In this document: in pieces, positions 1 to 14,617 of the stretch | Layout: every line of letters starts with the position of its first letter | Numbering within the stretch: position 1 is the stretch's first letter | From: a virus | Taxonomy: Duplodnaviria > Caudoviricetes | Virus record (IMG/VR): IMGVR_UViG_3300027969_000101 | Location: 1 to 63,203 of that record | Strand: one strand, 5' to 3' | Length of the DNA: 63,203 bases | Made by a program: the position numbers and the translations under genes | Notes under the pieces: model-generated | The model's database searches: none | What the model was told of the DNA's origin: nothing | The model's input: only the letters and a program-made list of their open reading frames with translations

Positions 1-154
1 AAGAAAAATAGGTGCCAAGATTATGCCTTGTATAAGTTTATATCGCTGTTCCGCTTCTTTCTCTTTAGATCTCTGGCGTTCAACTTCTATTTGTCTTTGA
101 GTTGAATACATATAATTTGTCCTCCTGACAAATATTTAGTCAAAAAAAATGCTA

Positions 155-241
155 CACTTTAGGAATTTGCGGTAGCGAATCGTTCATCCCAGGGCAGTAG
201 CCTCCCCACACTTACGGTAACAAGTACCGGTCCTAAGGTGT
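155..241 (-). ncRNA. Putative structured RNA 3' of ORF 247-576
   Basis: Terminal inverted repeat ACACTTTAGGA/TCCTAAGGTGT enclosing GC-rich hairpins; T-run follows on minus strand. Confidence 0.35.
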
Positions 242-246
242 GTTCT

Positions 247-576
247 TTAAGAGCTTCCGCCTTTTACTTCTTTATCATCTGGCTCGTCGTGTTTATTAAT
301 TTTCTTTTCAGCTTCAACACGTTCATACTCAATAGTCTTACCACGTAGGTGTAACACGGTATTAACTTTTTGATTTAACCGAATCAAATCATTGTCCAAC
401 ATACGAATGCGATCTATTAGTGCAATAAGAACAGTATTAGCATCTGAGATAACAGGTTTAACTTCGGTAGTGGCCCACGTCCATACATACTTGATGATAA
501 AACCCATACCAACTGCCATGACAATTGGAAAGCCGTATTTGTTTACTAGTTCTACAACGTCCATTAGAATAGCCAT
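247..576 (-). CDS. Small membrane protein (N-terminal TM helix + coiled coil), paralog of 1113-1394
   Basis: GFPIV..TM segment; LIDRIRMLDNDLIRL resembles LDNRVKTMNHDVIRI in 1113-1394. Confidence 0.6.
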   Translation of the reverse strand: MAILMDVVELVNKYGFPIVMAVGMGFIIKYVWTWATTEVKPVISDANTVLIALIDRIRMLDNDLIRLNQKVNTVLHLRGKTIEYERVEAEKKINKHDEPDDKEVKGGSS

Positions 577-702
577 CCTATGAAGAAGCCAACTAATGCG
601 CCGACTGCCGCGGCCTTGGCTAGATCAGCATCATGCCATAGAGGTTGTGTTTTTAAATATTCTTTTGTAGTTGCTGGTAAACTATCGTACCAATTTTCCC
701 AT

Positions 703-897
703 TTATTCATTGCTATTCACCTTATGTCCTTTTACAAACTGTTCTACAGGGTCCAGCTTGACCAACATGGCCCTGCCGTCAACATTTTTAATTTTAAAAC
801 AATCGCCGGCTTGCCATCCTAGTGCATCTATGTTTAATTCAGGGTCAAATTTAATGCCCCAAGGTTCTAAATCCCAATCGTAATCATAATGTCTCAT
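703..897 (-). CDS. Hypothetical protein
   Basis: ORF in co-oriented minus-strand run. Confidence 0.5.
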   Translation of the reverse strand: MRHYDYDWDLEPWGIKFDPELNIDALGWQAGDCFKIKNVDGRAMLVKLDPVEQFVKGHKVNSNE

Positions 898-1153
898 TAT
901 TCGCCCTCGCCCACTCTGTTGGCCATTTTGGATTAGTCTTTTTCTGTTCGGCTAACATTCTAATCCATTCTTTCTTTACTGCTAAATTATGTTTCATACG
1001 GTCTAATTCAGTGTCTGAATTATCACTGTAAAAAATATAATAAAACGCTATTCCAAATCCAACGCTTAGTAAAAAGTAACCAATATAATCTGAATTTAGA
1101 TTTATAACAAAATTAATCTCTACGAGCATCATTCTTTCCATCAGCTCGGGCAA
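884..1153 (-). CDS. Hypothetical membrane protein (start uncertain)
   Basis: One TM segment; overlaps neighbouring ORFs. Confidence 0.45.
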   Translation of the reverse strand: MPELMERMMLVEINFVINLNSDYIGYFLLSVGFGIAFYYIFYSDNSDTELDRMKHNLAVKKEWIRMLAEQKKTNPKWPTEWARANNETL

Positions 1154-1394
1154 TACGATCTGCGTCCGGACGTAGTCCTAGAGCATTAGATACAATCGTA
1201 TCAATACGTATAACATCGTGATTCATGGTTTTAACGCGGTTATCAAGTGCTGTAATAATACCAGCCATGCCTTTTACAGAGCTTAACACTCCCTGTAATA
1301 GTAGTTTGATTGTTAGATATACGAAATATCCGCCCGCTAATGCCGCTGCCACCGGAAACCCTAGGTCTCCGATAATTTTGAAAATATCGCCCAT
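1113..1394 (-). CDS. Small membrane protein, paralog of 247-576
   Basis: GFPVAAA TM helix; TAAATA late-type motif upstream on minus strand. Confidence 0.6.
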   Translation of the reverse strand: MGDIFKIIGDLGFPVAAALAGGYFVYLTIKLLLQGVLSSVKGMAGIITALDNRVKTMNHDVIRIDTIVSNALGLRPDADRIARADGKNDARRD

Positions 1395-1521
1395 TTTGAT
1401 TCGCTCCGCTCTGGTATAGATATTTAGTAGTTTTTATGCCAAAATACTTGCTTATAAACCTAGAATATGTTTAAATACACTGTACACAAAATTTAGTGTA
1501 TTTTAACAGGAAAGTAAGAAA

Positions 1522-1725
1522 ATGGTAACAGGAAAAGTAAAATGGTTCAATGACGCTAAAGGTTTTGGTTTCATTACTCCGGACAATGGCGGCAATGACT
1601 TATTTGCACATTTTTCACAGATTAACGCTGACGGGTTTAAAAGCCTGAAAGAGGGCCAATCCGTAAGATTTGAAGTAACTATGGGTCAAAAAGGTGAGCA
1701 GGCTAGCAACATTCAGCCAGCTTAA
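1522..1725 (+). CDS. cspA: Cold-shock protein
   Basis: [15 protein letters not shown] (RNP1) and LFAHFS (RNP2) motifs. Confidence 0.97.
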
Positions 1726-1727
1726 AA

Positions 1728-2052
1728 AATTGTTGTAGAAGTCTTAAAGTAAGGCATTCTGGACGCGGGTTCGACTCCCGCCAGGTCCACCATAAAGTAT
1801 ACTCCGATCCGAGTATTCTGGAAGCAAGGCGAAAGCTGAGTGTACTTTATAATGGGCCTGCCATGGTTTCGACAGGGTGAGATAGGATAAAGATCAACAC
1901 GTGGGGTCACGTAAAATACAAAAAACGTAAATGCAAACGCAAATACATTCAAGTACATGCAAGTTGATGTCGCTCTTAATGACGACCAATTTGCACTAGC
2001 TGCCTAAGAAACAGCACTTGCGAGGTAGGACTTACCTTGTCATCAAAACAAC
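1728..2052 (+). ncRNA. ssrA: Two-piece (circularly permuted) tmRNA
   Basis: Acceptor piece with T-arm and CAGGTCC-A-CCA ending 1792 precedes coding piece starting GGGCCTG at 1854 (G3.U70); tag frame 1933-2007 ANANTFKYMQVDVALNDDQFALAA*; outer ends approximate. Confidence 0.93.
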
Positions 2053-2053
2053 C

Positions 2054-2080
2054 AAAAAGGCACCTTCGGGTGCCTTTTTT
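2054..2080 (+). terminator. Intrinsic terminator
   Basis: AAAAAGGCACC-TTCG-GGTGCCTTTTTT. Confidence 0.9.
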
Positions 2081-2153
2081 ATTGACTTCTGGTTAGCACG
2101 GATATATACTTGTGACATGACACATGTCATTTATTAATAAAAGGAAGTTAACT

Positions 2154-2888
2154 ATGAAAAAGCTATTTTTAGCACTTATGATGGCAGTAGGTTTTGCCTC
2201 AGCACACGCCCAGGTAACCGGCAACTTGGGTCTAACATCAGACTATCGTTTCCGTGGTATTAGCCAAAGCCAAAATGCACCAGCAGTACAAGGTGGCGTT
2301 GACTACGCTCACTCAAGTGGTTTCTATGTTGGTAACTGGAACAGTTCTGTTTCAAGCCAATTATATACTAATGGTGCAGGAGTTGAAAGTGATTTGTATG
2401 CAGGATTTAAGAAAGATATTTACAAGGGTCTAACACTTGATGTTGGTTCTTATAACTATTTTTATCCACGTGCTACTACAGCAGGCACTGGTTCGAACTT
2501 TGACACATACGAAGGTTTCTTAGGGTTAGGATACGGTCCAGTTTCAGTTAAGTACAATCGTACTCTAGGTAATAGTTATTTTGGTACAGCTAATGCTCAA
2601 GGTACTCAGTACTATCAAGCAGACGTTGCTTACCCACTACCAATCAAAGGTCTAGAAAAAGTAAGTTTCTTAGCACACGCAGGTCACACCAATGTTGCTA
2701 ACAACAACTCACTGGACTACAGCGATTACAATGTTGGTCTTGGTTACGACTTAAAAGGATGGCAGTTTGCCGCTAAGTATTACACAAATACTAGCATGAC
2801 AAATTCGTTCCAAACAGCTAACACAGTTAGCGGTCAAAAGTTATACAAGAACACAGGTGTATTTTCAGTAACAAAAACATTTGAATAA
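2154..2888 (+). CDS. TorF-family (TIGR02001-like) outer-membrane beta-barrel protein
   Basis: Signal peptide; SDYRFRGISQS..PAVQGGVDY..GFYVGNWNSSV motif; near-terminal Phe. Confidence 0.85.
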   Translation: MKKLFLALMMAVGFASAHAQVTGNLGLTSDYRFRGISQSQNAPAVQGGVDYAHSSGFYVGNWNSSVSSQLYTNGAGVESDLYAGFKKDIYKGLTLDVGSYNYFYPRATTAGTGSNFDTYEGFLGLGYGPVSVKYNRTLGNSYFGTANAQGTQYYQADVAYPLPIKGLEKVSFLAHAGHTNVANNNSLDYSDYNVGLGYDLKGWQFAAKYYTNTSMTNSFQTANTVSGQKLYKNTGVFSVTKTFE

Positions 2889-2906
2889 ATTTCAAATTGT
2901 TTCAAT

Positions 2907-2927
2907 AAAGGCCTTCGGGCCTTTTTT
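2907..2927 (+). terminator. Intrinsic terminator
   Basis: AAAGGCC-TTCG-GGCCTTTTTT. Confidence 0.85.
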
Positions 2928-2930
2928 GTT

Positions 2931-3008
2931 ATTGATTTTTTCTATAAGCGTAATAGAAATAATTATAGCAAAAAACTATTGACTTGGGCATCTAATAGGA
3001 TATATAAT
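2931..3008 (+). promoter_or_regulatory. OxyR-like operator abutting a sigma70 promoter
   Basis: ATTG-N7-CTAT-N7-ATAG (2931-2956) and ATAG-N7-CTAT (2965-2979); TTGACT 2979, TATAAT 3003. Confidence 0.55.
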
Positions 3009-3032
3009 AGTACAAACACACAAGGAGACACT

Positions 3033-3482
3033 ATGTCAATAACATTAAAAAATTTAGAGTCGGCGCTTGCTGGCGAGTCTATGGCTCACATCAAGTATCG
3101 TTACTTTGCAAAGATTGCTCGCGAAGAGGGCTTCGAGGATGTTGCTAAACATTTCGAACACACAGCAGATCAGGAAATCAAACACGCTTGGGGACATTTG
3201 GAATTGCTAATTGGTAAGCCATCAACCCGCGAGTGCTTGGAGAAAGCCATCGAAGGCGAGACCTATGAGTTTACCCACATGTATCCAGATTTTGAACGTT
3301 CAGCTAGACTAGAGGGCAATACTCAAGCGGCTGGGGAAGCAAAACACCAAATTGAAGAAAGTAAAGAACATGCAGAGCAGTTTACCGCAGTTTTAGCAAA
3401 AGCAGAAAAACGATTTGCCGCTTTGAAGAAAGTTGAAGAACGTCATGCTAATGCTTATAAAAATGTTTTGGAGACACTATAA
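3033..3482 (+). CDS. rbr: Rubrerythrin
   Basis: NLESALAGES..YRYFAKIAREEG..QEIKHA..EGETYE..MYP..ESKEHA diiron motifs; AGGAG RBS. Confidence 0.93.
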   Translation: MSITLKNLESALAGESMAHIKYRYFAKIAREEGFEDVAKHFEHTADQEIKHAWGHLELLIGKPSTRECLEKAIEGETYEFTHMYPDFERSARLEGNTQAAGEAKHQIEESKEHAEQFTAVLAKAEKRFAALKKVEERHANAYKNVLETL

Positions 3483-3610
3483 TGGATCACGTATGCATAG
3501 TTTGTGGACATGTCCACGATGAGGAAACTGAAGGCAGATGGGACGAACTCTCAGCAGATTTTACTTGTCCAGAGTGTGGTGTTGGCAAAGATGAATACGA
3601 AGTTGTGTAA
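3482..3610 (+). CDS. Rubredoxin (not in ORF track)
   Basis: MDHVCIVCGHVHD...WDELSADFTCPECGVGKDEY: two CxxCG motifs; translationally coupled to rbr. Confidence 0.88.
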   Translation: MDHVCIVCGHVHDEETEGRWDELSADFTCPECGVGKDEYEVV

Positions 3611-3681
3611 ACTTTCTTAGGGGCTAAGGCGTTATATATATGTAGGGGTAGAAATTCCTACTTAACCAAAAAGGATATATC

Positions 3682-3885
3682 ATGAAATTGATCGCAACTT
3701 TAATGGCAACCTTGTTTGCCGCAACTGTGTTCGCCGCTGAGCCAGCTAAAGCTCCAGCAACTCCAGCTTCAGCACCAGCTAAGGCCGAAGTTAAGAAGGA
3801 CGAAAAGAAGCCTGCAAAAAGTGAGCCTGCAAAGAAAGACGCACCTAAAGCAGACGCAAAACCAGCTACACCAGCCGCTAAGTAA
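3682..3885 (+). CDS. Secreted Ala/Lys/Pro-rich low-complexity peptide
   Basis: Signal peptide followed by PAK/APA repeats; AGGA RBS. Confidence 0.7.
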   Translation: MKLIATLMATLFAATVFAAEPAKAPATPASAPAKAEVKKDEKKPAKSEPAKKDAPKADAKPATPAAK

Positions 3886-4152
3886 TCTTAGTTTAGATGA
3901 CAATGATGATCTCATTATTAATGATGAGATCACATTTGGCCGTAATCGACGAGCAGAAGATTTTGGTAAACTAGTCCATGAAGATGAGTTATCGGATCAT
4001 GTAAAATTTCGGTTATGGCTAGCTAGACAATTAGCCATGAAGAAGTACCAAGAAAAGTGGGGATAAAATCTCACTTTTCTTGTTAGGTTTTACTTCTTAT
4101 AAATTCGGTGGCAAAACTAATAACCTGTTTTTGCCACATATCAATACTAGTA

Positions 4153-4364
4153 TTGACAAGAAGACATATATACAATACAATAAAGATTAGTTAACCACTA
4201 AGGCATAAATAACTTGATGAAGTTAGCCAAAAATGGTTGACGGGATTGCTGAAAGGCAATATAATAGAAACAAGTTAGCAAACAAGGTGTCCGACAGTGT
4301 TGTAGAAATACAACAAAAAGAATTACAGAAAGTTGTTGACAAGGGTGTTGAAAGACACTATAAT
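4153..4364 (+). promoter_or_regulatory. Three tandem sigma70 promoters
   Basis: TTGACA-17-TACAAT (4153), TTGACG-17-TATAAT (4237), TTGACA-17-TATAAT (4336). Confidence 0.85.
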
Positions 4365-4423
4365 TAACACAAGACGCTAGCATTCCGCTAGTAAATTTTA
4401 AAGAAGAGTAAACGAGAAACAAA

Positions 4424-4573
4424 ATGCAATCAAACGTTAAACATCAGCAATTTAATACGATGCCTAGACTGGCAGGCGTTATAGCCTGTTCTTGGTTATC
4501 GATTAATAGCGGAAGTTTATCATATGATCGTACACCAGAGATTACCCAGGGGTCCCGGAGGACTGTAATGTAA
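4424..4573 (+). CDS. Putative attenuator leader peptide (49 aa, all 20 amino acids, 40 distinct codons)
   Basis: MQSNVKHQQFNTMPRLAGVIACSWLSINSGSLSYDRTPEITQGSRRTVM*; 3' end lies in the antiterminator hairpin. Confidence 0.7.
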   Translation: MQSNVKHQQFNTMPRLAGVIACSWLSINSGSLSYDRTPEITQGSRRTVM

Positions 4574-4631
4574 CTTAAACCTTACATAACAAACTTCAAG
4601 GACCCTAGGATTAAAAACCCTGGGGTTTTTT
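4546..4631 (+). terminator. Attenuator: antiterminator (4546-4609) versus terminator (4600-4631)
   Basis: GGACCCTAGG (4600-4609) pairs either with CCTGGGGTTT plus U-tract or with CCAGGGGTCC (4546-4555). Confidence 0.75.
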
Positions 4632-4636
4632 GTTTT

Positions 4637-4825
4637 GTGGAAAAGGAAAAGATGGAACAGATAGATTATACAAAATTGAATGAACGAATTGTTGAACAGG
4701 CTTATGAAACTGCTTTTGGAGAAATGTCCAAAGAACAGCTTCAAAAACTTATTCAAGATAAGTTTGAACGTGCTAGAAAATATCACGAAGCGTTGAACAA
4801 CTGTCCAACATTTAGTGTAAACTAG
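4637..4825 (+). CDS. Hypothetical protein (start probably 4652)
   Basis: ORF right after attenuator; AAGGA RBS before ATG 4652. Confidence 0.5.
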   Translation: MEKEKMEQIDYTKLNERIVEQAYETAFGEMSKEQLQKLIQDKFERARKYHEALNNCPTFSVN

Positions 4826-5090
4826 AGTAAGCGAAAGGTTGCCCAAGGGCAGTCGTAGATCGCAAAGTGCAATAGGAAACGAGATCCTAGCCCGCACTTA
4901 AAACATGGGTAAATGGGCGGACTAGTGGATGGCATTCCCTCTTGTGGGAAGAAAATACTAGTTATTAAAGCATATTCCGAAACTAGAATGTTTAGGGGAT
5001 AAGGCCACAAGCCGAGTATGCTTTAATAAACACTCTTCACCTCCGCCTACGACGCGGTTGACATCATAGAAGGAGAGTGTTACAAATTAT

Positions 5091-5173
5091 GGATGTGCTA
5101 GGCATTGGAGAGCCTAAGTGGCTGTAACCCACCCGTTAATTCTGTGTAAGTTCAACTCTTACCGCATCCACCA
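5091..5173 (+). tRNA. tRNA-Tyr(GTA), atypical
   Basis: GGATGTG/CGCATCC stem, CTGTAAC loop, encoded CCA. Confidence 0.8.
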
Positions 5174-5179
5174 TATTTT

Positions 5180-5253
5180 TCCTCTGTAGTTAAATGGTAT
5201 AACAATCGGCTGATAACCGGTCATTACAAGTTCGATTCTTGTCGGAGGAACCA
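5180..5253 (+). tRNA. tRNA-Ile(GAT)
   Basis: Cloverleaf, CTGATAA loop, CCA. Confidence 0.9.
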
Positions 5254-5262
5254 TAGTTTAAT

Positions 5263-5354
5263 GCCAGCGAGACTTGGTAGTCAGAGAGGTCTTATATACC
5301 TTTTAGCGCCAGATTAGCGTTCTTGAGAGGGTTCGATTCCCTCCGCTGGTACCA
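5263..5354 (+). tRNA. Atypical tRNA with TAT anticodon (Ile?) and long variable arm
   Basis: GCCAGCG/CGCTGGT, 4-nt D loop, CTTATAT loop, T-arm, CCA. Confidence 0.7.
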
Positions 5355-5358
5355 GTTT

Positions 5359-5418
5359 TAGGATAGCAACAGCAAATTTAAAAATTCTACTTTTAATGGA
5401 AAAAAAGATGCTATCCTG
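5359..5418 (+). ncRNA. ACAGCAA-stem RNA copy 1 (Lys-UUU anticodon stem-loop cargo)
   Basis: TAGGATAGCA/TGCTATCCTG stem; TTCTA-CTTTTAA-TGGAA. Confidence 0.75.
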
Positions 5419-5426
5419 TTTTATAC

Positions 5427-5501
5427 ACTGTCGTCGTCTAGTGGCTAGGACGCTACCCTTTCAAGGTGGAGAAGCGGGATCGATACCCGTCGACAGTACC
5501 A
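5427..5501 (+). tRNA. tRNA-Glu(TTC), atypical T loop
   Basis: CTTTCAA loop; ATCGATA T loop; CCA. Confidence 0.85.
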
Positions 5502-5505
5502 ACAT

Positions 5506-5580
5506 GCCGTTGTAGCTCTCTGGGAGGGTAACTCGTTGTCTGCGAGACTTAGGTGGGTTCGATTCCCATCAGCGGCGCCA
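5506..5580 (+). tRNA. tRNA-Asp(GTC), atypical anticodon loop
   Basis: TTGTCTG loop, G73, CCA. Confidence 0.8.
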
Positions 5581-5587
5581 AATTTAT

Positions 5588-5665
5588 TGTCCGAGAGCAA
5601 TCATGGTGTAGGCGCTTCGCTGTTAACGAAGAATGAGCTAGGTTCGATCCCTAGTCGGACAGCCA
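5588..5665 (+). tRNA. tRNA-Asn(GTT)
   Basis: CTTCG-CTGTTAA-CGAAG, G73, CCA. Confidence 0.85.
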
Positions 5666-5672
5666 AACAATT

Positions 5673-5747
5673 GGGGGCAGTAGTGGGCTACGGAGTTGCC
5701 TTGCAAGCATCTTGTCTAGAAGGGTTCGATTCCCTCGGCCTCCACCA
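5673..5747 (+). tRNA. tRNA-Ala(TGC), reduced D-arm
   Basis: G3.U70, CTTGCAA loop, CCA. Confidence 0.7.
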
Positions 5748-5751
5748 ATTT

Positions 5752-5808
5752 TAGGATGCGAACAGCAAATTTAAAAATTCAACTTTTAATTGAAAAATAA
5801 GCATCCTG
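5752..5808 (+). ncRNA. ACAGCAA-stem RNA copy 2 (Lys-UUU anticodon stem-loop cargo)
   Basis: TAGGATGC/GCATCCTG; TTCAA-CTTTTAA-TTGAA. Confidence 0.75.
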
Positions 5809-5827
5809 TTTTATAAAAGGAAATCTA

Positions 5828-5956
5828 ATGGCACACAAGCAACAAGGTATTCTAACACGTAGTCCTCAATGGTGGAAACATCTTAAGGATTGGAAACGTG
5901 TGTTCTGGAAATCAGAACGTCAAGCACAAAAGAAAAATATCAACAAAGGAGAATGA
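5828..5956 (+). CDS. Small basic Trp-rich protein (42 aa, not in ORF track)
   Basis: MAHKQQGILTRSPQWWKHLKDWKRVFWKSERQ...; AAGGA RBS. Confidence 0.6.
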   Translation: MAHKQQGILTRSPQWWKHLKDWKRVFWKSERQAQKKNINKGE

Positions 5957-6042
5957 TATGAAACGTTCAGGTAAACGTTAGTGTCATCTTTGACCCCGTA
6001 TGGTCTTAGATGGCACGTAAAAGAAATTAATTACGAATCCAT

Positions 6043-6117
6043 CCACGCTAAACTTTAGTGGCGAAGTACCCGGCTCTTAACCGGACTAACTGAGTTCGAT
6101 TCTCAGAGCGTGGACCA
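6043..6117 (+). tRNA. tRNA-Lys(CTT)
   Basis: CCACGCT/AGCGTGG, CTCTTAA loop, CCA. Confidence 0.85.
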
Positions 6118-6120
6118 TAT

Positions 6121-6195
6121 GGGGGTATAATTCAAAGGCTAGAATAGCCGGCTTTTAACCGGTCTATCAGGGTTCGAGTCCCTGTGCCCCTACCA
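6121..6195 (+). tRNA. tRNA-Lys(TTT)
   Basis: GCCGG-CTTTTAA-CCGGT, CCA. Confidence 0.92.
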
Positions 6196-6297
6196 TAAGC
6201 AAACACATTGTCGCAGTACGCCGAACCGTACTTGATTCTCATGTTGGAACCTAGCATGAAACTAGGGAGATGCGATTTCATCAGTGTGTTTACTTAT

Positions 6298-6372
6298 GGT
6301 AACGTAGCATAATGGTTGTGCACCTCCTTCATACGGAGCAAGGTGTGAGTTCGAATCTCACCGTTACTACCA
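6298..6372 (+). tRNA. tRNA-CAT (elongator Met or Ile2)
   Basis: TTCATAC loop, cloverleaf, CCA. Confidence 0.8.
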
Positions 6373-6393
6373 AATTAAAACATAAGTAATTTT

Positions 6394-6936
6394 ATGTTTA
6401 ATAAAGATGCTTTTAGCAACGGTCAGATAGATAGTAAGCTATGGTTATGTCGCGAGCTCGAAAATCTAGGCTGGACTAGTAACCTAACACATATATATGG
6501 TGGATGGTATGGTATACTGGCTTTTTTGTTATTGAGTAGAGAGAAGTTTAAAGTTGGTCGTATTGAAAGTTTTGATGTTGATCCAACTTGCAAAGAATAT
6601 GCAGATGCAATTAATGAAAACTGGGTTGTTAATAACGGAACATTTTCTTCTTATACACTAGATTGTAATCAAGAAGTTCCTAATATTGCTGACCTTATAA
6701 TTAATACCAGCACTGAACATTTTGAAGGTATGGATTGGTTTAATGAAATACCAAGAGGTACACGGATAATTTTACAAGGTAATAATATGCCGCACGATGA
6801 CCATTTTATTTGCTCGAATAACTTGCAAGAATTTGTTGATCGTTATAAACTACAGACTATTATATATCAAGGTAGTTTAGATTTTAATTACCCTAGTTGG
6901 AATTTTTCCAGATATATGGTAATAGGTATTAAATAA
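6394..6936 (+). CDS. Class I SAM-methyltransferase-like protein
   Basis: IYGGWYG glycine loop, SFDVD, INTSTEH; common in large aquatic phages. Confidence 0.6.
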   Translation: MFNKDAFSNGQIDSKLWLCRELENLGWTSNLTHIYGGWYGILAFLLLSREKFKVGRIESFDVDPTCKEYADAINENWVVNNGTFSSYTLDCNQEVPNIADLIINTSTEHFEGMDWFNEIPRGTRIILQGNNMPHDDHFICSNNLQEFVDRYKLQTIIYQGSLDFNYPSWNFSRYMVIGIK

Positions 6937-7187
6937 AGATATTAGTAAGAAACTCAAAGTACTATAATGTTCCGTAAGGGAAATGCATCTGCCGGAAGCG
7001 GGTGCATGGAGGGGTTATAAACCCCGGCATTTGCCAATGACGAGGTGATAGTGTTTACGGCATGAATTCACAGTTGGCAGAAGTACTCCATGTTAGGCAG
7101 GACAAAATAGAGCAGGCACTGTAAAGCCTGGGCGGCCTCAGACTCATAAGTCAAACCAGATCTCTTAGAGTTTCTTACTAATATCTT
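6936..7187 (+). ncRNA. Unassigned ~250 nt structured RNA closed by a 20-bp perfect stem
   Basis: AAGATATTAGTAAGAAACTC/GAGTTTCTTACTAATATCTT, GC-rich internal hairpins, no ORF. Confidence 0.6.
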
Positions 7188-7191
7188 CTAT

Positions 7192-7267
7192 GCGGGTGTA
7201 GCTCAGCTGGTAGAGCGCCACGTTGCCAACGTGATTGTCGTCGGTTCGACCCCGATCACCCGCTCCA
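7192..7267 (+). tRNA. tRNA-Gly(GCC)
   Basis: Canonical cloverleaf, U73, CCA. Confidence 0.95.
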
Positions 7268-7271
7268 GCGT

Positions 7272-7336
7272 ACTCCTTATATGACAGTTGAACACAGTCA
7301 TATAAGGGAAGGACAGTGTTCAACCTGTCCGAGAGT
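7272..7336 (+). ncRNA. Kissing-loop double hairpin RNA
   Basis: Loop GTTGAACA is the exact complement of second loop TGTTCAAC. Confidence 0.6.
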
Positions 7337-7338
7337 TT

Positions 7339-7467
7339 TAGGATACTAACAGCAAATTAAAATTCGCCTTCTAAGCGAGTGGTCGTTGGTTCGAGTCCAA
7401 CATTTGATCAAGCCTAAAAAGCAGTCAAATTAGCTCAGTTGGTAGAGCACTTAAAAAATGTATCCTG
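7339..7467 (+). ncRNA. ACAGCAA-stem RNA copy 3 carrying circularly permuted tRNA-Arg(TCT) (YrlA-like)
   Basis: TAGGATAC/GTATCCTG stem; order anticodon arm, T arm, loop-closed acceptor stem, D arm. Confidence 0.85.
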
Positions 7468-7477
7468 TTTTTATTGT

Positions 7478-7551
7478 TGGGGCATTGTGTAATGGTAGCA
7501 CAACAGACTTTGACTCTGTTAGTTTAGGTTCGATCCCTAATGCCCCTGCCA
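7478..7551 (+). tRNA. tRNA-Gln(TTG)
   Basis: ACAGA-CTTTGAC-TCTGT, CCA. Confidence 0.92.
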
Positions 7552-7560
7552 AGTTTCTAT

Positions 7561-7636
7561 GGTGTCTTTAGTGTAGTGGCCTGCACCCTGCTCTGTGAAA
7601 GCGGTAGTACCGGATCGATACCGGTAAGGCACCCCA
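7561..7636 (+). tRNA. tRNA-His(GTG)
   Basis: G-1:C73 8-bp acceptor stem, CTGTGAA loop. Confidence 0.88.
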
Positions 7637-7654
7637 ATTTTTAAGGAGAGTATC

Positions 7655-8122
7655 ATGCCGTGGATTGAAAATGTAGCAGCCAGTGATATCCCAATTGGAT
7701 TTCATCACGATGCTGGCCCTAACAGTATGCTGATCAGCATTGTTGATCCGGCAAGTTGGCGACCTGAAGCCAAGCATGAATTCAAAGAGCGTCACAACTT
7801 TGAGTTCTTGGATGTAGAAGAAAAGGACGAAGTTTTAGAAGAAGCTATGAAGTGTAGTCATGAGCAGGCCGCAGAGCTTGTTCGATTGTTACAACACGCA
7901 TTAGACTGTCGTATGAATGTGGTAGTTCACTGCTACGCTGGTATTTGCAGATCGGGTGCGGTTTGTGAGGTTGGAGTCATGATGGGCTTCAATGATACTG
8001 AGCGTTTTCGTAGTCCAAATCTCTTGGTTAAGCATCGCATGATGAAGCATTTGGGTTGGACTTACGATGCGGATGAAAAGCCAAATATTGATGATTGGCG
8101 CACTTTTAGGCCGGTTGATTGA
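7655..8122 (+). CDS. Protein tyrosine/dual-specificity phosphatase-like protein
   Basis: VHCYAGICRS = HCxxGxxRS catalytic loop. Confidence 0.8.
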   Translation: MPWIENVAASDIPIGFHHDAGPNSMLISIVDPASWRPEAKHEFKERHNFEFLDVEEKDEVLEEAMKCSHEQAAELVRLLQHALDCRMNVVVHCYAGICRSGAVCEVGVMMGFNDTERFRSPNLLVKHRMMKHLGWTYDADEKPNIDDWRTFRPVD

Positions 8123-8176
8123 CAGTGTTGCCTGTTTAATGTATAATACTTGTATACTAACAAGCAAGGATATACT

Positions 8177-8350
8177 ATGGCCGGCAAAGCAAAATCAATC
8201 TACTTGACCATTAATCCAAAAGGTAGTTTTACTTCGGTTTTCAAAAAAATGTTCTTTGAAGCTAAATCTTACAATGAATATGTTAAAACAGACGAGTTCA
8301 AAGCCAAGTGGCCTATTACTGAATATGATATTGTGAAAGAAACATACTAA
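8177..8350 (+). CDS. Hypothetical protein
   Basis: TTGACA..TATAAT promoter and AAGGA RBS upstream. Confidence 0.6.
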   Translation: MAGKAKSIYLTINPKGSFTSVFKKMFFEAKSYNEYVKTDEFKAKWPITEYDIVKETY

Positions 8351-8526
8351 TGAAGATTAAATTTGATAAAGAAACTATGCCTGACGAACTGTACAATGCA
8401 CTACTACAGCATTTTGTAAATGAAGCAGTTGGGCTAGGGGTAGAAGTTAATAAGTTTACCCAATTTAATAATTGGATTATTGAATGTACTATAGACGCTA
8501 AAGAAGCAGTTCACTAAGGAATTATT

Positions 8527-8859
8527 ATGAATGACATTATAACACAAGGTCGTGTCATCCGAGATGGCCGAGTAGCGGTACTTTACAGTCCGGGATTTGG
8601 CGCTGGTTGGAGCACATGGGCACATAGTGGCGAAGGTAAAGATTTAGTATTTGATCCAGTCATAGTTGGATATGTGGAACGCGGTGCTAAGGCTGAATTA
8701 GCGACCTACATGGAAATGCGTTATCCAAATGTCTACACTGGCGGTATGGACGATCTAGTAATTGAATGGGTTCCTGTTGGAACACTATTCAAGGTTAATG
8801 AGTATGACGGTAGCGAATCAATCGAGCTAAAAGAAGCCGATCAATGGATGGTAGCATAA
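8527..8859 (+). CDS. Conserved phage hypothetical protein
   Basis: VAVLYSPGFGAGWSTW...EYDGSE motif. Confidence 0.7.
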   Translation: MNDIITQGRVIRDGRVAVLYSPGFGAGWSTWAHSGEGKDLVFDPVIVGYVERGAKAELATYMEMRYPNVYTGGMDDLVIEWVPVGTLFKVNEYDGSESIELKEADQWMVA

Positions 8860-8879
8860 CATAAAGAAAGGAGGGCAAG

Positions 8880-9485
8880 ATGCCTAGTGTATTTTTAGTA
8901 AGCGACACACACTTTGGACACACAGGTGTCTGCCGCTTCACACGTAACGACGGTTTTACAAAATTAAGGCCATGGACCGATCCAGATGAAATGGACGAGG
9001 CAATGGTCAAAGCCTGGAACGAACGGGTAAAGCCCACTGACAAGGTCTATCACTTAGGTGACGTTGTAATTAATCGTAAGGCTTTAGGTATTTTACGTAG
9101 GTTAAACGGAGACAAAGTTTTAATTCGTGGTAACCACGATATCTTTAAAGACGAGGACTATCGTGCTCACTTTAGAGAACTTAGGGCTTATCACGTTATG
9201 AACGGTATGATATTAAGTCATATTCCGTTACACAGTGACAGCTTAGGTCGGTTTGGTGTTAACATCCACGGACACTTACACGCAAATCGTGTTAAGAAAG
9301 CTCGGGGTGTTGATGCTAAGACCGGGGAAGTCTTATACAGCGATGAAATCGATCCTCGATATCATTGTGTATGCGTGGAACAAACTCCAGACTTTGCTCC
9401 TATCTTATTTGAAGACGTATTAAAGCGTATTGAAGAAGAAGGTGGTAGCGTTGGATTTAAGTCCGGCAACGGTCCTACTATGTAA
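8880..9485 (+). CDS. Calcineurin-like metallophosphoesterase
   Basis: SDTHFGH, HLGD, GNHD, HGHLH motifs. Confidence 0.9.
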   Translation: MPSVFLVSDTHFGHTGVCRFTRNDGFTKLRPWTDPDEMDEAMVKAWNERVKPTDKVYHLGDVVINRKALGILRRLNGDKVLIRGNHDIFKDEDYRAHFRELRAYHVMNGMILSHIPLHSDSLGRFGVNIHGHLHANRVKKARGVDAKTGEVLYSDEIDPRYHCVCVEQTPDFAPILFEDVLKRIEEEGGSVGFKSGNGPTM

Positions 9486-9536
9486 GAACAGACCCCCGCT
9501 TTACAAGTTGTGCGGTGAACAACTTGTACTAATTTT

Positions 9537-9612
9537 GCCGCTTTAGCAAATGTGGTCATTGCACCGGTTTGAAGCACCGAGGAATGAGGTTCGATCCCTC
9601 AAGGCGGCACCA
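9537..9612 (+). tRNA. tRNA-Phe(GAA)
   Basis: TTGAAGC loop (G37), CCA. Confidence 0.8.
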
Positions 9613-9774
9613 AGTTTCAAGATAGACGTGGGGATAGAGTCCCGGCAGTCCTAGCATAGTGGCTCAGCTATGTGACAGCGCAAGAACGGACACGCTCGGT
9701 AGACATAAACTCTCCCTTACGAGACAATCCAATGAGTCCCATAAACGGATAGTTGGGCACTTGAAAACCTTTAT

Positions 9775-9851
9775 ACCCCACTGGCGCAATTGGTAGACGC
9801 GACTCTCTCAAAAGGAGTGAAGTCCCCGTTCGAGTCGGGGGTGGGGTACCA
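9775..9851 (+). tRNA. tRNA-Leu(CAA) with short variable loop
   Basis: ACTCT-CTCAAAA-GGAGT then 5-nt variable loop. Confidence 0.85.
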
Positions 9852-9852
9852 C

Positions 9853-9926
9853 GCTCTTGTAGGTAAATGGAATACCACTATCTTGGTACGATAGAATTTA
9901 AGGTTCGATTCCTTACTTGAGCACCA
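9853..9926 (+). tRNA. tRNA-Thr(GGT), mismatched acceptor stem
   Basis: CTATC-TTGGTAC-GATAG, CCA. Confidence 0.75.
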
Positions 9927-9927
9927 T

Positions 9928-10002
9928 ACCGCAATAGTCTAAGGGATAGGCAACACTCTTCTAAAGTGTACAATGTAGGTTCGAGTCCTACTTGCGGTGC
10001 CA
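9928..10002 (+). tRNA. tRNA-Arg(TCT)
   Basis: ACACT-CTTCTAA-AGTGT, CCA. Confidence 0.9.
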
Positions 10003-10013
10003 TAAATAGATTA

Positions 10014-10088
10014 CGGGCTTTGGTGAAATGGATATCATTCTGGTCTTCGAAACCAGCGGTGTGGGTTCGATTCCTGCAAGCCCGGCCA
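10014..10088 (+). tRNA. tRNA-Arg(TCG)
   Basis: CTGGT-CTTCGAA-ACCAG, CCA. Confidence 0.9.
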
Positions 10089-10106
10089 AAATAGTTCACA
10101 AATGTG

Positions 10107-10182
10107 TTGACATAGTGCGCTAGATGTTATATAATACGTACATACACTGATAATACAGCAGTATAAACGTTCTTTAAAAATT
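10107..10182 (+). promoter_or_regulatory. Sigma70 promoter followed by rrn-type boxA
   Basis: TTGACA-17-TATAAT (10107-10135); small hairpin then CGTTCTTTAAAAATT (10168-10182). Confidence 0.7.
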
Positions 10183-10195
10183 TAAAAGTTAATTT

Positions 10196-10271
10196 GCTCG
10201 GTTCGTCTATCGGTTTAGGACACCGCCCTTTCACGGCGGGAAGAGGGGTTCAACTCCCCTACCGAGTACCA
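10196..10271 (+). tRNA. tRNA-Glu(TTC)
   Basis: CCGCC-CTTTCAC-GGCGG, CCA. Confidence 0.93.
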
Positions 10272-10438
10272 TTAAATAATAACTGCCAGTGGGTATCGTG
10301 TAGGGACGCTTACACTAGGCGGGCTGGTCGGGCCATCGATCAGTCCTGAGACAACCACAGCAATGGCTTATGAGAGGAAGCACCTCACTCAGAAATTTGC
10401 CCGGCGTCATAGACCGTGACAGTTATTTTTTAATGGTA
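10267..10438 (+). ncRNA. Unassigned structured RNA closed by a long stem
   Basis: TACCATTAAATAATAACTG/CAGTTATTTTTTAATGGTA enclosing GC-rich interior. Confidence 0.5.
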
Positions 10439-10445
10439 AAGTTAC

Positions 10446-10528
10446 GCCCCTTTGGTGGAATTGGTAGACACGCTGGTCTTAGAAGCCAGTGCGCGAGCGT
10501 CCGAGTTCGAGTCTCGGAGGGGGCACCA
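10446..10528 (+). tRNA. tRNA-Leu(TAG)
   Basis: Class II cloverleaf, CTTAGAA loop. Confidence 0.93.
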
Positions 10529-10533
10529 AATAT

Positions 10534-10619
10534 GGAGTAGAAGCATCAATGGTGATGCAGTGGACTGTAAATCCGCCGTCGTAATGGCACGCCTGGTTCG
10601 ATCCCAGGATACTCCACCA
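10534..10619 (+). tRNA. tRNA-Tyr(GTA)
   Basis: CTGTAAA loop, long variable arm, CCA. Confidence 0.88.
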
Positions 10620-10634
10620 AATAAAGGAAAGTAT

Positions 10635-11273
10635 ATGAAGTATACTATAATTGAAGATTGCAGTCCATTTTATGTAAGATTTGCATGGAACGGTATTGAA
10701 GACATAATTGCGCTTGTAGCAAGTTTGAGTACTATTGATACAAGTATACGATTTTCAAATAGTACATACACCCATTACGATTTTAATGCCGATAAAGCTA
10801 ATCAAATTATAAACAATTTACCAATGAAATCAGACTTTGATTTTATGATGAATAGAGTAGGGTTGTTTGTCACTACACCCGGTTCAAAATCAAGTACTCA
10901 CAAAGATGCAACAGATCATCGATTCAGTATCAATTTGCCTATTGAAATATTAGACAATAATTGTGTTACTAGTTGGTATAATGATGAAGAAATTAACGAG
11001 TTTAAACTGTCAGACTCTCACCGTGGGTACAGCCGAGTGTTAAAAAGTATAGATTTAACATCTAAAGTACCATCTAAAACAATGATTGCTCGTCCAAACG
11101 AGTGCATATTGTTTAACACTGATGTATTCCATAACTGGGATAACACACAGTCAATTAATCAAAGAATTGTTTTAACTCTCCGGGTTAATAATCCCGGCAA
11201 AATGTATTTTGATGATGCAAAAAAAATATTATTTGGAAATGTGGCAGAGTCCGGCTTATTGCAACAGTCTTGA
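10635..11273 (+). CDS. 2OG-Fe(II)/cupin-like oxygenase
   Basis: HKD...FNTDVFH...RIVLTLR; AAGGA RBS at ATG 10635; 3' end overlaps tRNA-Ser. Confidence 0.6.
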   Translation: MKYTIIEDCSPFYVRFAWNGIEDIIALVASLSTIDTSIRFSNSTYTHYDFNADKANQIINNLPMKSDFDFMMNRVGLFVTTPGSKSSTHKDATDHRFSINLPIEILDNNCVTSWYNDEEINEFKLSDSHRGYSRVLKSIDLTSKVPSKTMIARPNECILFNTDVFHNWDNTQSINQRIVLTLRVNNPGKMYFDDAKKILFGNVAESGLLQQS

Positions 11274-11324
11274 AAACTGTCGATCAGAAATGGTCCGTGA
11301 GTTCGAATCTCACCGTTTCCGCCA
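11235..11324 (+). tRNA. tRNA-Ser(TGA)
   Basis: Class II cloverleaf, CTTGAAA loop, G73. Confidence 0.93.
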
Positions 11325-11449
11325 AGTTATACTTGCTGAGTAGCTACACTGGAACACCGAAATACTTGTCAATGTCGACTATGTACAAGGACCGGCCAGG
11401 AAGAGTTGGGCTACCGTGAATTCAAGCGTCACAGCGAGTACCTTTTAAT

Positions 11450-11523
11450 GTATCCCTAATGTAATGGCAGCATGACAGTCTCCAAAACTGTTCGTCGGAG
11501 TTCGAGTCTCTGGGGGTACGCCA
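11450..11523 (+). tRNA. tRNA-Trp(CCA)
   Basis: ACAGT-CTCCAAA-ACTGT. Confidence 0.9.
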
Positions 11524-11527
11524 AGTT

Positions 11528-11602
11528 GGTCTCATAGTATATCGGTTAGTATAATGGCCTGTCACGCCGTAGGGACGAGTTCGATTCTCGTTGAGACCGC
11601 CA
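11528..11602 (+). tRNA. tRNA-Asp(GTC)
   Basis: CTGTCAC loop, G73, CCA. Confidence 0.92.
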
Positions 11603-11654
11603 AGTAATTAAAATAGTTGTTGACAACAGCGTATATAGAGAGTATAATAACAGC

Positions 11655-11885
11655 ATGTATAAAGTTATATGTAATGACAAAGAAGTAGAAAGATTTATCA
11701 CCCTAAACGAAGCAATGTTGTTTGCTAAGTTGTTAGGCACTTTTGTAACTATCAAAGGTCCTGATCTCGAAGTAGTTGGCCGATTCGGAGTTGACTCTGT
11801 AGTAGATGGTAAGTGTCCAGACGGAGTTGCTTATGATTGGAATAAAGCTAGCCGAATTGGTCGTGTAAAACGAGAACGAGTTTAA
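11655..11885 (+). CDS. Hypothetical protein
   Basis: Near-leaderless ORF after TTGACA-17-TATAAT promoter. Confidence 0.6.
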   Translation: MYKVICNDKEVERFITLNEAMLFAKLLGTFVTIKGPDLEVVGRFGVDSVVDGKCPDGVAYDWNKASRIGRVKRERV

Positions 11886-11889
11886 AATT

Positions 11890-11974
11890 GCGACTGTGGT
11901 GAAATAGGTAGACACAAGAGACTTAAAATCTCTCGCTGAAGGGCGTGCCGGTTCGATTCCGGCCAGTCGCACCA
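11890..11974 (+). tRNA. tRNA-Leu(TAA)
   Basis: Canonical class II. Confidence 0.95.
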
Positions 11975-11981
11975 AGTATTA

Positions 11982-12069
11982 GGAGAGTTGGCCGAGTGGT
12001 TAAGGCAACGGTTTGCTAAACCGTCGTCCCGAAAGGGGCGCATAGGTTCGAATCCTATACTCTCCGCCA
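11982..12069 (+). tRNA. tRNA-Ser(GCT)
   Basis: Canonical class II. Confidence 0.95.
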
Positions 12070-12089
12070 TTAATTATAAAAGGAAAAAT

Positions 12090-12329
12090 ATGGCCAAGCC
12101 AAATAAAACATTTAAATTGAGCAAGACATCAAAACGTATGATTGCGTTAATGAAAGGCTGTACAGCCGAACAACGTAATCAATTTAAACGTATGATGATT
12201 GATGCTCAAGTATGCAGTGAAATTGTTGTTAAGAGTGCTCCACGTGATAAAAATGCACCACGTGGTGCACCTGGTGTTGCCGGTACTACTGGCAGTCACG
12301 CTTATACAACAACTGCAACAGTAGAATAA
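12090..12329 (+). CDS. Small basic hypothetical protein
   Basis: AAGGA RBS; true start after tRNA-Ser. Confidence 0.6.
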   Translation: MAKPNKTFKLSKTSKRMIALMKGCTAEQRNQFKRMMIDAQVCSEIVVKSAPRDKNAPRGAPGVAGTTGSHAYTTTATVE

Positions 12330-12336
12330 GAATTAT

Positions 12337-12412
12337 TCCGCCTTAGCTCAGTTGGTAGAGTAGATGACTGTTAATCATTTGGTCCCTGGTTCGAGCCCAG
12401 GAGGTGGAGCCA
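12337..12412 (+). tRNA. tRNA-Asn(GTT)
   Basis: Canonical cloverleaf. Confidence 0.95.
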
Positions 12413-12429
12413 AGAAATAAGTAGTATAT

Positions 12430-12505
12430 GGGGGTGTAGCTCAGTTGGGAGAGCGTATGCTTTGCAAGCATAATGTCGTCGGTTCGATCCCGTCCACCTC
12501 CACCA
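12430..12505 (+). tRNA. tRNA-Ala(TGC)
   Basis: Canonical, G3.U70. Confidence 0.95.
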
Positions 12506-12522
12506 AGTTATAGGAGTTTATT

Positions 12523-12684
12523 ATGGCAGGTAAAGGAAGTAAGCCTAGGCCTTTTAATGTGCCTAAGGAAGAGTTTGATAAATCGTTTGAAAATATTTTT
12601 GGTAAGTATGTTCCGCCTTATTTGCGAAACCGTACAGAAAACAATAGAGAAAAATCAACCGACACCAAACACAACGATAAGTAA
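12523..12684 (+). CDS. Small phage protein (MAGKGSKPRP...; not in ORF track)
   Basis: AGGAG RBS, 53 aa. Confidence 0.6.
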   Translation: MAGKGSKPRPFNVPKEEFDKSFENIFGKYVPPYLRNRTENNREKSTDTKHNDK

Positions 12685-12689
12685 CACAT

Positions 12690-12765
12690 GCCGGTTTAGC
12701 TCATTTGGTAGAGCGCCGCTCTTGTAAGGCGGATGTGGTCAGTTCGATTCCGACAACCGGCACCA
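12690..12765 (+). tRNA. tRNA-Thr(TGT)
   Basis: CTTGTAA loop, CCA. Confidence 0.92.
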
Positions 12766-13164
12766 GGTAACCCGTGATCCCGTACACGTAATAAACGGGG
12801 GTGAGGCAATCACCACAGAGAGTGCTAGGTATTCAATGCTATGACCATCCGTCTCCGTTTAGGAGTAGCGGGAACGCATTGGGTCAGGACTAACAACCTG
12901 CCCAGAAGAAGAAAATGTTACGGACAGAGTAACCGCTCAGTCTAGGGCGCATGTGGTGTGCGTAGCTAGACACTTTATTAAAACAAATTTAAATCCGTAA
13001 AAAGATCAGGTTTGGTATCCCAGGAGCTCTTTGACATAGTCATAACTCTTTATACACCTTAGTTTGTTTTAATAAAGTACATTTAACCGATCTATAAGAT
13101 AGGTAGTAAGGACAGGGCACCGGGTGAAACATCCAAAAGCCATAGATGTGCTTTACTAAAATTT

Positions 13165-13238
13165 GCGGGACTAGTTTAATGGTAAAACAGCAGATTTCCA
13201 ATCTTCGGTTAGGAGTTCGATTCTCCTGTCCCGCTCCA
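13165..13238 (+). tRNA. tRNA-Gly(TCC)
   Basis: TTTCCAA loop, U73, CCA. Confidence 0.92.
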
Positions 13239-13258
13239 GAATTTAAAAAGGTCAATAT

Positions 13259-13864: not shown

Positions 13865-13873
13865 AGAATAATT

Positions 13874-13950
13874 CGGAGTGTAGCGCAGTCTGGTAGCGCA
13901 CCTGGTTTGGGACCAGGGGGTCCAAGGTTCGAATCCTTGTACTCCGACCA
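13874..13950 (+). tRNA. tRNA-Pro(TGG)
   Basis: Canonical. Confidence 0.95.
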
Positions 13951-13965
13951 ATTTAAGGAAACTGT

Positions 13966-14532: not shown

Positions 14533-14539
14533 TGAATGA

Positions 14540-14614: not shown

Positions 14615-14617
14615 ATT

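Follow-up and report, generated by a model that had tools for sequence, protein, structure and literature searches.

Leader-peptide attenuators such as those of trp, his, leu, thr, ilv and pheA consist of a short leader open reading frame (ORF) and two mutually exclusive hairpins, an antiterminator and a terminator, which share one strand. The position of the ribosome on the leader decides which of the two hairpins is formed, and stalled decoding leads to read-through. Known attenuator leaders sense one to three amino acids (aa). Other systems close to this arrangement are the antibiotic-responsive attenuators, where leader ORFs are located ahead of erm, ABC-F or bmrCD-type genes, the T-box riboswitches and pyrBI. 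Here we describe a leader element on the (+) strand of the IMG/VR virus record IMGVR_UViG_3300027969_000101; the whole record of 63,203 bp is called the window below, and all coordinates count from its first letter. The CheckV completeness of the record is 18%, and it is therefore a fragment of an uncultured jumbo phage. Analysis of the window and of related loci suggests that the element is probably a ribosome-mediated transcription attenuator which heads the tRNA operon of the jumbo phage and which would be read through when any amino acid is decoded slowly.

The phage locus (Table 1) resembles the leader-peptide attenuators in its short leader ORF, in the strand shared between its exclusive antiterminator and terminator hairpins and in the presence of a hairpin within the leader that could pause the RNA polymerase. 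As proposed here, the position of the ribosome would also decide between the two hairpins, and stalled decoding would give read-through. However, the phage leader does not contain a run of codons for one amino acid; instead all amino acids are present, most of the rare ones once. Its stop codon is located inside the antiterminator and not upstream of it. A convincing 1:2 anti-antiterminator was also not found in the phage leader, and lack of translation should therefore result in read-through rather than in super-attenuation. The phage module further differs in what it would control, namely a small protein, an RNA and tRNAs, and the Rfam models of leader-peptide transcription attenuators (Trp, His, Leu and Thr leader) do not match between positions 4100 and 5090 at E ≤ 1.

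The antibiotic-responsive attenuators share with the phage locus, as its mechanism is proposed here, an upstream ORF followed by a terminator, the favouring of the antiterminator by a ribosome slowed within a certain part of the ORF, and a response to general translation trouble instead of to one metabolite. In contrast to the phage leader, their leaders are compositionally incomplete, often need arrest peptides and control resistance genes. T-box riboswitches are likewise transcription attenuators which report the charging state of tRNA, but they bind one uncharged tRNA directly and without an ORF, whereas the phage element would sense all amino acids through the ribosome; a search for T-boxes with Rfam in positions 1–16000 gave no match at E ≤ 1. 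As in pyrBI, the outcome would depend on the distance kept between ribosome and polymerase along a leader of roughly 45 codons. However, the pyrBI ORF runs through the terminator, which is blocked by the ribosome, whereas the phage ORF stops 24–32 nucleotides (nt) before the terminator arm. Therefore, translation of the phage leader should promote termination and not prevent it.

Table 1. Positions of the leader module and of the features around it in the window.
Feature	Position	Strand	Description
Promoter-like site P1	4153–4181	+	TTGACA-17-TACAAT, 11/12
Promoter-like site P2	4237–4265	+	TTGACG-17-TATAAT, 11/12
Promoter-like site P3	4336–4364	+	Perfect consensus, 12/12; inferred start near 4371
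5'-terminal stem-loop of the P3 transcript	4376–4392	+	From the minimum-energy fold of the window
Leader ORF	4424–4573	+	49 sense codons and TAA; all 20 amino acids; 40 distinct codons
Hairpin inside the ORF (candidate RNA polymerase pause hairpin)	4471–4490	+	Helix 9: 73.1% paired, 5/6 pairs changed on both sides
Antiterminator hairpin (predicted)	4546–4609	+	Outer helix 4546–4555/4600–4609, inner helix 4564–4573/4582–4591
Intrinsic terminator (predicted)	4598–4637	+	Stem 4603–4609/4619–4625, A/G-U extension to 4598/4630, 9-nt loop, U-tract from 4626
Conserved 57-aa gene	4652–4825	+	20 nt after the U-tract; own AAGGA ribosome-binding site
Conserved structured RNA in spacer	4866–4975	+	34 sequences, 20 predicted pairs, 14 with compensatory changes
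tRNA array	5091–15134	+	35 tRNAs, all 20 amino acids (ARAGORN, Rfam)

The leader ORF was recognised in an earlier note on this DNA, which had described its length, its complete amino-acid set and its codon diversity; this description is borne out. A purine-rich ribosome-binding site precedes the ATG of the putative leader. All six Ser codons and all four Thr codons are used, Arg is encoded by AGA, CGT, CGG and AGG, Gly by GGC, GGA and GGG, and Ile by ATA and ATT. The list of absent codons given in the note (CTY, TTG and CCG) is incomplete, since CTA and CCC are absent too. For chance tests on the window leader the 48 codons after the start were counted. Under the codon usage of the window, the comparison that the note had proposed, the mean number of distinct codons is 29.8 (standard deviation (sd) 2.4) and not one of 20,000 draws reaches 40. 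Uniform codons give a mean of 33.4 (sd 2.3; P = 0.003 for 40), and synonymous resampling of the window peptide also gives 33.4 (sd 2.0; P = 0.0008). Among stretches of 48 codons taken from long ORFs, 0 of 242 exceed 37 distinct codons. Presence of all 20 amino acids at the length of the window leader has P = 0.044.

Two further ideas about the codons of the leader did not hold. The earlier note had proposed an all-codon leader with one codon per isoacceptor, and it had expected conserved codon diversity in related leaders. This fails as a trait of the family: synonymous codon diversity given the peptide has a mean z of 0.33 over the 38 unique ORFs of the first set of relatives described below, which is no higher than for uniform choice, and the window is the sole exception (z 2.39, P 0.015). 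The 40 distinct codons are thus peculiar to the window and not a family trait. We also considered that the leader codons might be tuned to the tRNAs of the phage itself and rejected this candidate, as there is no enrichment: 22 of the 48 leader codons are Watson-Crick cognates of phage tRNAs, against 53% in long ORFs, and 41 of the 48 can be decoded by them with wobble, against 87% in long ORFs.

Two sets of relatives were used. The first is based on 45 related viral loci found via the small protein encoded downstream (58–88% identity), and it comprises 38 unique leader ORFs. The second set comprises at least 120 further stretches found by a degenerate terminator motif, and it gave 81 new unique ORFs. 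Overall counts are based on 116 unique nucleotide versions and 114 unique peptides (at least 33 residues, 35–74 aa), which include the second-set matches listed. Exactly one ATG-initiated ORF of 35–51 codons is present 50–110 nt before the 57-aa gene in 45/45 loci of the first set, and a leader ORF is present in 118 of 120 motif-found loci among the matches listed. A leader ORF with a divergent peptide, for which the earlier note had suggested looking in related phages, is found among the relatives. The pangram-leader module occurs widely among uncultured jumbo phages of freshwater. A cultured relative is not known, as searches at the DNA and protein level against 50,697 GenBank phage records gave no match.

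Comparison of these versions shows that the leader ORF is maintained as an open frame. Frame 0 is free of stop codons in 116/116 unique versions, while the other two frames are open in 1/116 and 0/116 and contain on average 3.1 and 4.5 stops. The peptide, in contrast, is not conserved as that of a protein gene would be. Entropy at the three codon positions is 0.84, 0.69 and 0.83, so an excess at the third position is absent, and within the nucleotide block 4515–4539 conservation extends to first, second and third codon positions alike. GGGTCC, a conserved motif of the hairpin, encodes Gly-Ser in part of the relatives, whereas in others the frame differs and the motif falls within Arg-Val-Arg. 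Positions which are invariant in the core group are few, namely a Trp, an Asp-Arg pair and a Glu, and the peptides of seven divergent lineages are barely alignable, yet contain complete amino-acid sets. No match to the leader peptide is present in Pfam or PHROGs.

What is preserved in the family is that the leader encodes a complete amino-acid set. Of the 38 unique ORFs of the first set, 34 contain all 20 amino acids, including one of 35 and one of 38 codons. In the out-of-sample second set this holds for 69 of 81 unique ORFs among the matches listed; nine more contain 19 amino acids, and three short ones (28–29 codons) look truncated. Together, 101 of 114 unique peptides are complete among the matches listed. 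From the pooled composition of the leaders themselves, the chance of a complete set is 0.27% at 35 codons, 3.2% at 46 codons and 6.3% at 51 codons. Control sequences are rarely complete: six-frame ORFs of 35–51 codons in the window give 2/101, one of them being the leader (1/100 for the non-leader ORFs), non-leader ORFs in the loci give 4/437, and the other two frames of the leader DNA give 3/116 and 0/116. When the leaders are clustered at 70% identity, 34 of 41 clusters hold a complete member, and relatedness is therefore no explanation of the completeness.

The distribution of the rare residues is informative in this respect. Cys occurs exactly once in 30/30 core sequences but is spread over 9 alignment columns, and His, which occurs once in 26/30, is also spread over 9 columns. 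In the window leader, the single Cys is codon 22 and the single His is codon 7. Shuffling residues within columns keeps the composition of each column and breaks compensation within a sequence; complete sequences then number 6.2 ± 2.0 (maximum 15 in 5,000 shuffles) against the 29 of 30 observed. This deficit, together with the wandering of Cys and His, indicates that selection acts on composition, namely on every amino acid being present, and not on positions or on sequence. The full set of 20 is already reached upstream of the antiterminator arm in 84–93 of 115 sequences among the matches listed.

The second part of the module consists of the two overlapping hairpins at the end of the leader. 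The earlier note had proposed that the last codons and the stop form the 5' arm of a long hairpin which sequesters the 5' arm of the terminator, and the predicted fold bears this out: the stop codon (4571–4573) is located inside the antiterminator hairpin on its 5' strand, and one strand of its outer helix includes the 5' arm of the terminator, so that both predicted hairpins compete for one G/C-rich segment. Folding of the transcript between the P3 start and the U-tract (4371–4635) gives -77.1 kcal/mol (z = -5.26). A pattern scan restricted to loops of 3–8 nt missed the terminator because its loop is 9 nt long. A terminator hairpin followed by a U-tract is present in 38/38 sequences of the first set, with hairpin energies of -14.3 to -22.2 kcal/mol, and it is the consensus structure returned by RNAalifold on these 38 sequences (10 pairs, 3 of them with compensatory changes). 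Folding of the transcript truncated after the terminator's 5' arm, as a model of the nascent RNA, yields in 38/38 sequences a long hairpin of -17.5 to -34.2 kcal/mol in which 7–11 of the 12 arm nucleotides are paired. At least 7 of the 12 are sequestered in 92 of 94 second-set sequences among the matches listed. In a control where the upstream 72 nt were dinucleotide-shuffled, at least 7 nt were sequestered in 36.9% of 3,800 folds; the mean antiterminator energy is -27.0 kcal/mol as observed and -15.1 kcal/mol after shuffling (mean z -4.2).

The spacing within this region is also conserved. Between the stop codon and the terminator arm there are 24–32 nt in the first set and 20–32 nt in the second set among the matches listed, and in 87 of the 94 second-set sequences listed the stop follows the end of the 5' arm by 15–19 nt. 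In full-length minimum-energy folds the antiterminator state is found in 29 of 38 sequences and the terminator state in 9 of 38. This split indicates that the two states are predicted to be close in energy, as expected of a bistable element.

Covariation in the hairpins of related phages was another expectation of the earlier note. A covariance-model alignment of 79 distinct sequences shows 95.8% of cells paired, compared with 85.8% in shuffled sequences and 30–64% when the partners are slid. In the same alignment 12 of 18 antiterminator pairs, with 148 cells, have changed on both sides, against 27.4 cells in shuffles (0/500), a result to be read with the fact that such an alignment leans to its model and that it contains no variation at the six core outer pairs. 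Because these six pairs are invariant, support from covariation for the outer helix comes from the divergent lineages, in which compensatory changes are seen as GGGUUCC/GGAACCC, GGGGGUUCUG/CAGAGCCCC and GGGGUUUCAU/AUGAAACCCC. RNAalifold on plain MAFFT alignments recovered the terminator only, or nothing, because the variable inner hairpin and a register shift of one column spoil the alignment and dilute the counts.

Two further hairpins precede the antiterminator. The one inside the ORF is directly followed by the invariant Trp codon (4493–4495), and it is a matter of speculation that it acts as a pause hairpin which synchronises the polymerase with the ribosome, as in the trp and his leaders. 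A TnaC/SecM-like arrest motif (a Trp and then a Pro about 12 residues on) was considered for the peptide and dropped, as the spacing varies between relatives. The stem-loop at the 5' end of the P3 transcript is kept as a hairpin with differing sequences in the relatives when the alignment is inspected by eye; in the formal count it is weak, being poorly aligned (helix 1, 41.7% paired).

Three strong promoters before the ORF, as claimed in the earlier note, are confirmed as near-perfect promoter-like sites (Table 1). In the relatives, at least one promoter-like site scoring at least 10/12 is present upstream of the leader in 46/46 loci, at least two in tandem in 41/46 and at least three in 9/46; these last nine are the loci with a site at the place equivalent to P1 (about -271 from the ATG). 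Promoter-like sites between the leader start and the 57-aa gene are found in 0/46 loci, and between the 57-aa gene and the tRNAs in 13/46. On the (+) strand of the window, zero sites score at least 9/12 between 4364 and 6743. In seven divergent loci (L003, L006, L008, L017, L023, L045 and L046, at about 2760–2810 in each) the -10 box ends 6–10 nt before the leader ATG and the -35 box starts 35–39 nt before it, which implies that the leader mRNA of these loci may be leaderless or near-leaderless. Metatranscriptome contigs from four RNA runs of four studies cover about 4279–4919 and 5185–5300 of the region 4100–5300, and one contig of 258 nt from an RNA library is identical to 4354–4611.

Downstream of the terminator, the organisation differs from that described in the earlier note, where the terminator was placed just before the tRNAs. 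The 57-aa gene and a 265-nt spacer with the structured RNA intervene, and the first tRNA starts at 5091. A tRNA array on the same strand follows the module in 33 of the 36 loci scanned, and the other 3 are cut contigs. No promoter-like site is present between the leader module and the first ten tRNAs of the window, and further consensus promoters are located within the array at 8119, 10107, 11620 and 14694. The proposal that the leader gates the tRNA array stands in one respect, as no promoter precedes the next gene in any of the 46 loci. It needs amendment in another: the first gene gated would be the 57-aa gene, and 13/46 loci have a later site. The stated size of the array, 35 tRNAs, is reached only with relaxed settings. 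Default ARAGORN gives 33 tRNAs, and it misses a tRNA-Cys (GCA) at 15058–15134 (+) and a second tRNA-Tyr at 10534–10619 (+), both of which are recovered by Rfam and by relaxed ARAGORN.

The arrays of four records whose leaders lack one amino acid cover 14–18 amino acids in the stretches used, these records being fragments, and the amino acid missing from the leader is missing from the array as well in two of the four. From this it seems that the leader tests decoding in general rather than mirroring the tRNA set of the phage.

On these grounds the following mechanism can be envisaged. Transcription would begin at the strong promoters, two or three in tandem, and the RNA polymerase would be trailed through the leader by a ribosome. 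With fast decoding, the end of the ORF including its stop codon would be covered by the ribosome, or by several queued ribosomes, at the time when the polymerase synthesises the terminator. The antiterminator would thereby be deprived of its 5' strand, the terminator hairpin would form and transcription would end at about 4631. When the ribosome is held at an earlier codon by any scarce aminoacyl-tRNA, or when none is loaded, the more stable antiterminator would form instead, and transcription would continue past the terminator into the 57-aa gene, then the structured RNA and the first block of tRNAs. In this way the output of the operon would be raised whenever the decoding of any amino acid slows. 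Possible triggers would be decay of the host tRNA pool, tRNA-cleaving defences, starvation and general translation stress. Because every amino acid is represented in the leader, lack of any one aminoacyl-tRNA would be reported. It is possible, and we put it forward more tentatively than the attenuator itself, that the module is a universal decoding sensor, in which any single aminoacyl-tRNA shortage, as may follow the action of a host anticodon nuclease or the decay of the host tRNA pool, derepresses the phage tRNA operon together with the 57-aa protein and the structured RNA. In relation to the earlier note, the attenuator interpretation is upheld for the leader ORF, for the overlap of antiterminator and terminator and in the form 'all amino acids', with the 101 complete sets among 114 peptides; it is not upheld in the form 'all codons'.

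Several observations weigh against this mechanism. The 5' arm of the antiterminator pairs with upstream sequence at a mean of 4.6 of 8.5 nt, and a clear anti-antiterminator was not found. The usual footprint of a ribosome that has reached the stop would end just short of most of the 5' arm (-25 to -16), which would therefore have to be masked by steric exclusion or by ribosomes that trail behind. Packing of the amino-acid set into the part before the arm does not exceed chance placement (mean permutation P 0.32), and with the strictest boundary all 20 amino acids are upstream in only 59 of 115 sequences, Glu or Val then being present in the tail only. In the RNA libraries, the leader and the 57-aa gene have similar contig depths, and one contig spans position 4631, extending 43 nt to one side of it and 57 nt to the other. 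Such contigs may include DNA, and they cannot show RNA ends or levels and hence not termination. It also appears that only part of the array can be gated, because a promoter-like site is found before the tRNAs in 13/46 loci and the later blocks of the array carry promoters themselves. Finally, the leader does not seem to mirror the tRNA set of the phage, the missing amino acid being shared by leader and array in two of the four fragment records.

These points have to be considered together with other explanations of the locus. One of them retains the attenuator and changes its purpose: it would report global translation capacity or amino-acid starvation, its target would be the 57-aa protein, and the tRNA array would merely be the next operon. 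The 57-aa gene is the only one dependent on read-through in all 46 loci, with 13 of these having a further site before the tRNAs, and its protein, at 76% mean column identity, is far more conserved than the leader. The leader codons are unmatched to the phage tRNAs, and the amino-acid set of the leader does not seem to track that of the array, both of which agree with such a target. However, the module heads a tRNA array in 33 of 36 loci, the window has no promoter-like site before its first ten tRNAs, and a sensor of the global rate alone needs no full amino-acid set. We consider this explanation unlikely.

Other explanations dispense with the attenuator altogether. The absence of a third-position excess, the different frames in which the C-terminal third is read among relatives and the wandering of the single Cys and His between columns all speak against a conventional gene for a small protein, equipped with promoters and a terminator of its own, in which the hairpin would stabilise the 3' end and the peptide would act as a protein. 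Divergent peptides are barely alignable and still complete, and no protein family matches them. Promoter, ribosome-binding site, ORF and terminator do form a complete monocistronic unit, and a few core-group positions (Trp, Asp-Arg and Glu) are invariant, as a protein gene would have it; but the next gene is without a promoter, and the terminator must therefore leak or be regulated even then. We rate this explanation as quite improbable. Least credible, and in our estimate highly improbable, is that the terminated structured RNA of about 260 nt is itself a functional small RNA, with the ORF secondary or of dual function. Its very strong fold in the window (z = -5.26), the covariation of helices within the ORF and the conservation of the block 4515–4539 at all three codon positions are what such an RNA could display. 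However, it leaves unexplained both the ORF that is open in 116/116 versions and the complete amino-acid set, and no Rfam family matches at E ≤ 1. The ribosome-mediated attenuator which responds to slow decoding of any amino acid thus remains the reading that we prefer.

The 57-aa protein has 13 invariant residues and 529 cluster representatives in metagenomes, nearly all of them unnamed or 'hypothetical', and it belongs to no Pfam or PHROG family. It is predicted to form a two-helix hairpin (predicted local distance difference test score (pLDDT) 78), and a Foldseek search of the PDB with this model gave 0 matches. The structured RNA of the spacer is present in all 34 unique relatives aligned and contains several invariant single-stranded motifs; it has no Rfam match at E ≤ 1. 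Inspection by eye indicates a third helix, which would make a pseudoknot.

Some neighbouring features were noted in the same record. A weak match to YrlA, a Y-RNA-like RNA, is located inside the array at 7355–7478 (+), with 39.5 bits against a gathering score of 69. Just after the array, a 469-aa ORF at 15833–17242 (+) carries DUF2828 and DUF7788 domains. These two may be a phage Ro/Y-RNA-like pair. On the other side of the leader, a permuted (two-piece) transfer-messenger RNA (tmRNA) is located at 1680–2081 (+), and a tmRNA is also present upstream of the leader in relatives. The top Rfam score of the window tmRNA is that of the betaproteobacterial model, which hints at the group to which the host may belong. 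Between the tmRNA and the promoter cluster, two ORFs were recognised by eye at 2979–3610 (+), the first rubrerythrin-like (167 aa) and the second rubredoxin-like (42 aa), the latter containing two CxxC pairs. Farther away, an AMP-binding enzyme is matched at 33668–35083 and an ATP-dependent DNA ligase at 52709–54034. Four adjoining ORFs are located at 57284–62347 (+), three of which match radical-SAM and one of these also SPASM.

The control of phage tRNA genes is, to our knowledge, essentially unknown. A full-text search of the literature outside subscription journals returned no leader with all 20 amino acids and no attenuator before phage tRNA genes. If the proposed mechanism is true, this would be the first known attenuator that controls tRNA genes and the first that senses the whole amino-acid alphabet. 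The leader family is also a rare clean case of selection on peptide composition, as its single Cys and His codons move and are never lost. As a compact sensor of the health of translation for every amino acid, the module could serve as a reporter. For the phages themselves, a feedback device that monitors decoding across the 20 amino acids would account for the adjustment of large tRNA arrays to demand, and it would link these arrays to the tRNA-targeting defences of the host.

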